Source: a virus (taxonomy: Duplodnaviria; Heunggongvirae; Uroviricota; Caudoviricetes). From it: DNA of 5,312 bases. The stretch lies in the IMG/VR virus record IMGVR_UViG_2778261418_000026. The stretch is one strand, 5' to 3'. A model generated the notes under the pieces. It was given only the letters and a program-made list of their open reading frames with translations, was not told the DNA's origin and searched no databases. Below are positions 5,150 to 5,312 of the stretch, in pieces. Positions within the stretch are counted from its first letter, which is position 1, and the number at the start of each line of letters is the position of its first letter. Position numbers and translations under genes: made by a program.

Positions 5150-5231
5150 GCCAGTTACAGCGGGTAATGTAAAGTTAAATTCTGGTTTTAGATTACCAAC
5201 AATAAGTTTAGTTGATACACCACCTAAAATA

Positions 5232-5312
5232 TTATATTAGACTGGCCCCCTGAATCTCCAGACAACCAGTATCACTTAAATAAGTGATAGTCTTAATACT
5301 AGTTTTTAGACT
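5232..5312 (-). CDS. 3' end of an upstream ORF that runs off the window (C-terminus ...[26 protein letters not shown]); possibly the 5' part of the tail-fiber gene in a different frame, or a separate tail gene
   Basis: It is the only frame without stops on either strand across 5240-5312. Stop at 5234..5232. It is offset by +1 relative to the tail-fiber frame, whose own upstream stop is at 5239..5237. Confidence 0.4.

Follow-up and report, generated by a model that had tools for sequence, protein, structure and literature searches.

The window analysed here, a stretch of 5,312 nucleotides (nt) with positions counted from its first letter, raises a question at its right end: a phage tail fibre gene on the minus strand has no convincing start, and a second reading frame comes in from the window edge and meets it within a few nucleotides. 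What has happened to this gene? The initial annotation read the place as one fibre protein split between two frames and offered four explanations, i.e. a sequencing or assembly indel, a genuine frameshift mutation leaving a truncated or pseudogenised fibre, a non-canonical recoding event, or two separate genes. The sequence facts on which it was built hold, but the frameshift drawn from them does not, so that as a whole its reading is partly supported and mostly wrong. Comparing the locus with intact relatives and with annotated insertion sequences, we are highly confident that a copy of IS2 has transposed into the J-like tail tip fibre gene of a siphovirus-type prophage that resides in yegD of Escherichia coli.

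Positions 1–5237 of the window are the right arm of this prophage. Just beyond window position 1, a 224-aa fragment of yegD is found in related loci (L005 5358–6032; L001 and L002 5283–5954), followed by alkA, dgcE and udk, which places the integration site in yegD. The prophage arm is present at a coverage of at least 80% in 2 of the 5,426 complete E. coli genomes, and in many draft assemblies too. A search for distant DNA similarity between the prophage part and known phages returned only about 170 nt, in the 3'-terminal part of the fibre gene, shared with NBD2-like phages; the prophage does not correspond to any described phage. Elsewhere in the arm, a GIY-YIG (SegE-like) nuclease gene (1190–1627, minus strand) adjoins a phage lysozyme gene (1668–2120, plus strand), and it is possible that this nuclease is a homing endonuclease in the late region of the prophage.

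The C-terminus of the fibre frame matches the Pfam family Phage_Tail_Tip (PF09327) with E = 1.9e-17 (63.7 bits against a cut-off of 22), and the frame also matches PHROG 31, 'central tail fiber J', along with other tail-fibre PHROGs. Its likeness to the J protein of lambda ('central tail fiber J'; PF09327, PHROG 31) lies in the C-terminal Phage_Tail_Tip domain of the remnant, in the combination of FN3 and Phage_Tail_Tip in its intact homologue and in a position where a siphovirus-type tail module ends; the lambda J family is, however, only a distant relative. In the numbering of the intact 1101-aa protein of locus L008, the window contains the last base of codon 582, codons 583–1101 and the stop codon at 3679–3677, i.e. 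only the C-terminal 47% of the J-like protein (residues 583–1101). Measured against a J-like protein of about 1000–1100 aa with an N-terminal tail-tip part and FN3, the frame is incomplete and the locus no more than a fragment of the gene. On the minus strand the frame is closed at 5239–5237 by a TAA that the junction described below creates, and for this reason the fibre frame seems to 'open' at 5236.

Both the ORF list and the codon list give the GTG at 5149 as the first ATG, GTG or TTG codon in this frame, as the initial annotation had stated. Reading the sequence directly, we found no Shine–Dalgarno or AGGAG-like motif before this GTG or before the TTG at 5143, which matches the earlier remark that the GTG is not preceded by a Shine–Dalgarno sequence; both codons are ordinary Val and Leu codons of the intact gene (residues ...TGVKLKN...). 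In the protein collection the gene call on the remnant is 490 aa long, and the same product is found on 3 contigs there. The cluster of this product includes the 488-aa WP_201795972.1 ('phage tail tip fiber protein'), whose size fits a start at TTG 5143 and whose contig is as long as the source contig (74,728 bp). It looks like the RefSeq call made on that contig and would then be an annotation artefact of the truncation. The Pfam domain fn3 covers residues 507–587 of the intact protein, and the break after residue 582/583 falls within it. Because the break cuts through the FN3 domain, beta-rich sequence is visible upstream of the GTG, and the earlier observation that the fibre domain starts before this codon is borne out by residues that align without gaps from residue 582 of intact homologues onward.

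The structure of the gene in relatives is clear. Two complete E. coli genomes match the window from position 1 to 5236, at 97.9% and 94.8% identity, and both matches end at 5236; in each of them the matching stretch is a prophage right arm in yegD, with alkA as its neighbour. The fibre gene of E. coli WGI31CT is a single ORF of 1100 aa, to whose residues 582–1100 the 519 codons of the window align without a gap at 96.9% amino-acid identity. As intact references and controls we gathered 21 more related loci via the neighbouring 589-aa tail gene, none of them from the source assembly GCA_002521215.1. The J-like gene is uninterrupted, as one ORF of 1100 or 1101 aa, in at least 16 related loci and in most of the 21 loci gathered, and every related locus that was translated across the junction site stays in a single frame throughout. 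In these loci the gene closes a siphovirus-type tail module at its distal end, downstream of tail-tube-like, 589-aa, DUF2163 and DUF6950 genes; on its other side follow the small ORFs, DUF8377 and lysozyme genes that are also seen in the window. The intact genes of three loci (L008, L014 and L015) are 100% identical in nucleotide sequence to the window over all 1561 nt (3677–5237), and beyond base 5237 they continue as fibre sequence with no IS (...GTA GCT GC/A TAT AAT..., the slash marking the end of the shared part). Since this identity includes base 5237, the base belongs to the fibre gene and IS2 starts at 5238. The homology of the window to related prophages ends exactly at 5236/5237, without any shift of frame.

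What follows base 5237 is the left end of IS2. This element of the IS3 family is 1331 bp long and carries the transposase genes orfA and orfB with an A6G –1 frameshift site, as well as a right inverted repeat (IRR). Positions 5238–5312 are 100% identical to annotated IS2 copies in Stx2 phages and 97% identical to the copy in SfX. A megablast search of the fibre region against phage records gave no match within the fibre itself; positions 5238–5312 matched, at 95–100%, sites annotated as IS2 or as 'interrupted by IS insertion'. In the annotated records the match begins at base 1 of IS2, 91 nt upstream of orfA, with exact alignment from TAGACTGG onward; the orfA start would thus be IS2 position 92, past the ends of both window and contig. 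Among the 5,426 complete E. coli genomes, 4,676 contain these 75 nt, on chromosomes as well as plasmids and at 20,749 places in total (median 3, maximum 41 per genome). This is the repeated, mobile distribution of IS2 in its host species.

The published layout of the IS2 left end fits the window base for base (PMC3299598). The left inverted repeat (IRL) has been described as 42 bp, 5'TAG...TTAA3', and the OrfA docking site as 5'TAAATAA3' with protected residues 39–48 of IS2 (PMC3299598); in the window we find the 42-bp IRL and, just inside it, the OrfA operator and the promoter P_IRL, which directs orfA/orfAB rightwards, away from the fibre remnant. The likeness to IS2 as characterized by Lewis, Grindley and co-workers (PMC3299598) and as annotated in Stx2 phages and SfX comprises the terminal 75 nt, the IRL, the OrfA site, the placement of TGAT and the multi-copy occurrence in E. 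coli. Compared with other IS2 copies, the end seen here, which consists of the left 75–77 nt only, has no distinguishing feature; at IS2 position 32 it carries a G, as do O157-type copies. The coordinates of all features are collected in Table 1.

Table 1. Features at the fibre/IS2 junction, in window coordinates
Feature	Position	Strand	Basis
3' remnant of a lambda-J-like phage tail tip (central tail) fibre gene	3677..5237	-	Pfam, PHROG, intact homologues
Internal GTG (5149-5147) and TTG (5143-5141) used by gene callers as starts of the remnant	5141..5149	-	ORF list, codon list
'Upstream +1 ORF', a spurious open frame antisense to the IS2 end	5232..5312	-	translation
Predicted left copy of the 5-bp target-site duplication (TATAT on the plus strand, ATATA on the coding strand)	5233..5237		inferred
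TAA closing the fibre frame, made by the junction	5237..5239	-	IS2 bases 5239 and 5238 plus target base 5237
IS2 nucleotides 1-75 (left end)	5238..5312	+	100% identity to annotated IS2 copies
IS2 left terminal inverted repeat (IRL), 42 bp, 5'-TAGACTGG...CACTTAA-3'	5238..5279 (IS2 1-42)	+	annotated copies, PMC3299598
Perfect 9+9-bp palindrome TATCACTTA-aa-TAAGTGATA	5270..5289		inverted-repeat search; second of the three dyads noted initially
OrfA (InsA) repressor docking site TAAATAA, inside the palindrome 5270..5289	5277-5283 (IS2 40-46)		PMC3299598
Start of the weak extended -10 promoter P_IRL: TGAT (5285-5288, IS2 48-51), then AGTCT	5285..5293	+	coordinates counted from 5238

The assembly itself ends inside the element. 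The window is identical to the end of contig NOSC01000024.1 (GCA_002521215.1), which encodes the 490-aa product and stops at window position 5314, 2 nt past the window end and exactly 77 nt into IS2. In de Bruijn assemblies, a repeat-induced break usually shows itself in a contig that runs exactly k nt, here 77, into a multi-copy repeat, and the short-read assembly broke inside a multi-copy IS2 in this typical manner. The break at k = 77 suggests that the sequence beyond it is also repeated in the genome, which speaks for a genuine IS copy and against a short solo remnant.

Put together, the junction joins the last 1561 nt of the fibre gene (3677–5237, minus strand) to the left end of an IS2 that starts at 5238 and has its genes directed away from the fibre remnant. 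From this we infer a simple insertion with a 5-bp duplication and a full-length element. The insertion point would fall in codon 584 of the roughly 1100-codon gene, between its first and second base, inside the FN3 domain. Because base 5237 is target sequence and the IS2 copy of the related locus L012 (see below) has a 5-bp duplication, we place the left copy of the target-site duplication at 5233–5237; the duplicated ATATA would extend over codons 582–584. The rest of IS2 and the N-terminal 582–583 codons would then be found on the far side, where the N-terminal half of the fibre gene and the duplicated ATATA should abut the IRR. For this far junction we predict ...GTAGCTGCATATA followed by TGGATTTGCCCC (the IS2 right end), or, written across the joint, ...GACTTTGCAGTAGCTGCATATA/TGGATTTGCCCCTATATTTCC. 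The N-terminal half would run into the right end of IS2 and terminate as ...AAYMDLPLYFQTSVIT and a stop codon.

The piece in the window, with no promoter, ribosome-binding site or genuine start of its own, would be an untranslated pseudogene fragment that is presumably not expressed, and the prophage would then lack a normal, functional tail tip. Of the truncated or pseudogenised fibre considered initially, the outcome stands (an incomplete piece without its own start), while its supposed cause, a frameshift, gives way to the IS2 junction. A consensus scan revealed a promoter-like hybrid over the junction that reads into the remnant on the minus strand: a –35 element TGGAGA contributed by the IRL (5260–5255), a spacing of 18 nt, and a perfect –10 element TATAAT formed by Tyr–Asn codons of the fibre (5236–5231). 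Given this pattern match, the remnant may not be fully silent. We see only a slim chance, though, that it transcribes the remnant and that a truncated receptor-binding fragment made from GTG 5149 or TTG 5143 is partly active, e.g. through receptor occupancy that excludes related phages.

Could the two frames nevertheless belong to one protein? The second frame enters from the window edge and ends, as reported initially, with the TAA at 5234–5232, i.e. 3 nt into the fibre sequence; 26 codons are visible, made up of IS2 nt 75–1 read antisense and 3 fibre nt, and no start of this frame lies within the window. A +1/–1 frameshift, be it an indel or a true mutation, would account for two frames that overlap by a few nucleotides at 5232–5239 and for a fibre domain that extends upstream of the first start codon. 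However, the upstream frame reads the antisense strand of an IS2 end that thousands of IS2 copies share letter for letter, and it has 1 of 26 residues in common with the true preceding fibre residues (QTVPTQLEFDLYGLDPDTNYDFAVAA); the two frames do not encode parts of one protein colinear with its homologues. Since the upstream frame is not fibre, no single-nucleotide correction can rebuild the fibre protein, and this includes the conceptual fusion by removal of one nucleotide at 5235–5237 that had been suggested as a check. The homology to intact genes stops abruptly at 5237 instead of changing frame, which speaks equally against an indel of sequencing or assembly, and we consider a split of this kind close to impossible. 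Programmed recoding, in which dyad-stimulated ribosomal frameshifting would join the two frames, draws on nothing but the juxtaposed frames and the nearby inverted repeats. The likeness to the programmed G/GT frameshift of lambda, two overlapping frames in the tail-gene region, is superficial: here the upstream frame is foreign IS DNA, and the intact relatives encode the protein in a single frame. Moreover, on the coding strand the dyads come before the frame junction, on its 5' side, and are part of IS2. All three inverted repeats listed initially are present at their coordinates, but the central one really has arms of 9+9 bp and the other two are at chance level. When the 72-mer was shuffled, about 0.5% of shuffles gave arms of at least 8 bp with a loop of at most 4, so that the 9+9-bp palindrome is non-random; pairs with 5-bp arms such as the first and third (loops of 20 and 14 nt) arose 1.66 times per shuffle on average, and 45% of shuffles contained at least two. 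The sole non-random dyad is the known OrfA operator palindrome of IS2, and the 'dyad-rich junction' is made up of the IS2 terminal repeat, the OrfA operator and the promoter region and is not a recoding signal. For recoding there is, in our estimate, virtually no probability left.

The remaining explanations accept the junction as it stands or blame the assembly for it. Gene callers accept the ORF of 488 or 490 aa that begins at TTG 5143 or GTG 5149, and the promoter-like hybrid spans the junction, so one may ask whether the ORF is a genuine short fibre protein that is translated independently. Neither codon is preceded by a Shine–Dalgarno sequence, though, and both are internal Val/Leu codons in every intact relative; the ORF begins inside FN3, at a place where no intact relative has a gene boundary. 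The comparison of the junction in related genomes, which the initial annotation had itself named as a test, shows neither two genes nor a frame split, but one continuous gene of about 1100 aa without IS. We therefore judge two genes very unlikely. That fibre sequence was wrongly joined to an IS2 end might be suspected of a junction at the contig edge of a short-read draft; yet the contig contains exactly 77 nt of IS2 counted from its terminus, as expected in a de Bruijn assembly for a real insertion beside a collapsed repeat, whereas a random mis-join would not start at IRL base 1, and the same 490-aa product is found on 3 contigs in the collection, which makes an assembly chimera extremely improbable. 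A further alternative takes the junction as real but not as a simple insertion: IS2 would mark where a deletion, inversion or other rearrangement mediated by the IS ends, and the N-terminal half of the gene, perhaps with the rest of the prophage, would then not lie across this IS2 copy. The contig ends within the IS, so that the adjacency on the far side is not visible, and our searches for the far side did not find it. An exact scan of species-representative genome contigs, among which the source isolate is not included, gave 0 matches to the 31-nt fibre/IS2 junction. When the first 581 residues of the intact protein were searched against cluster representatives, the best match reached 84% identity (P0001, a metagenomic relative). 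The predicted chimera, N-terminal 582/583 aa plus MDLPLYFQT[S/P]VIT (...DFAVAAYMDLPLYFQT[S/P]VIT), was absent from the protein collection in an exact look-up of four variants, where a difference of one residue or another gene call counts as a miss. Both negative protein results are weak arguments, however: the N-terminal search also missed P0077, a 1100-aa representative that is 97% identical over its whole length, and in this collection fragments are absorbed into full-length clusters, while the look-up of the chimera depends on a residue-perfect guess. A simple insertion with a 5-bp duplication is, in addition, the default outcome of IS2, as in the same gene of L012, and we hold a rearrangement to be unlikely.

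The simple insertion of IS2 that we favour has a counterpart in locus L012 (GCA_051182335.1, ABZNRK010000006.1). Here, a complete 1331-bp IS2 occupies positions 9875–11205 in the same J-like gene, near codon 152; IRL and IRR are both present, the copy is 95% identical to that of Stx2 phage and is flanked by a 5-bp duplication (GTACC), and L008 provides the corresponding empty site. This copy displays the complete structure that we would expect at the window's locus, and it fixes the IS2 boundary convention that we used for the window. The two loci share the prophage family, the J-like gene and the element. They differ in the site (approximately codon 152 in L012, codon 583 in the window) and in orientation, as the IS2 genes are co-directional with the fibre gene in L012 and antiparallel to it in the window. 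Because of the opposite orientation and the different site, the insertion in L012 is an independent event.

The fibre gene is also broken in other ways in this family. Three loci (L001, ~10122–10150; L007 and L009, ~12253–12281) have in common a 1-nt insertion relative to the window, after coding-strand nt 1107 of the remnant, which divides the product into 953 + 157 aa. In L026 (~10479–10622) the gene is called as 953 + 100 aa, and in L017 (~11914–11936) it is split into 171 + 936 aa. At the start of the contig of L023 (GCA_014636585.1, 1–1264) we observed an IS3-family transposase of 422 aa directly upstream of a tail fibre gene (1338–3311); this Peptidase_S74-type tail fibre of the same prophage is 657 aa long, compared with 1233–1244 aa, and L023 probably is another IS disruption of a tail gene. 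Overall, the J-like gene seems to be decaying repeatedly in the yegD prophage family.

Insertions of IS elements into prophage structural genes, like contig breaks at IS copies in drafts, are routine in E. coli, and the locus described here is an ordinary gene disruption of an already known kind; it opens no new question. For annotation, the proper description is an IS2-disrupted pseudogene fragment of a J-like fibre gene, and neither a frameshifted or recoded gene nor an intact 488-aa protein as in WP_201795972.1. The case also illustrates a recurrent pitfall: where a draft contig ends k nucleotides into an IS, spurious short ORFs turn up at the contig edge and reading frames seem to clash there. 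Biologically, it is one more case of the inactivation of a prophage tail gene in E. coli, and, since other strains have frameshifts and an independent IS2 insertion in this gene family, it fits the domestication and decay of the yegD prophage.
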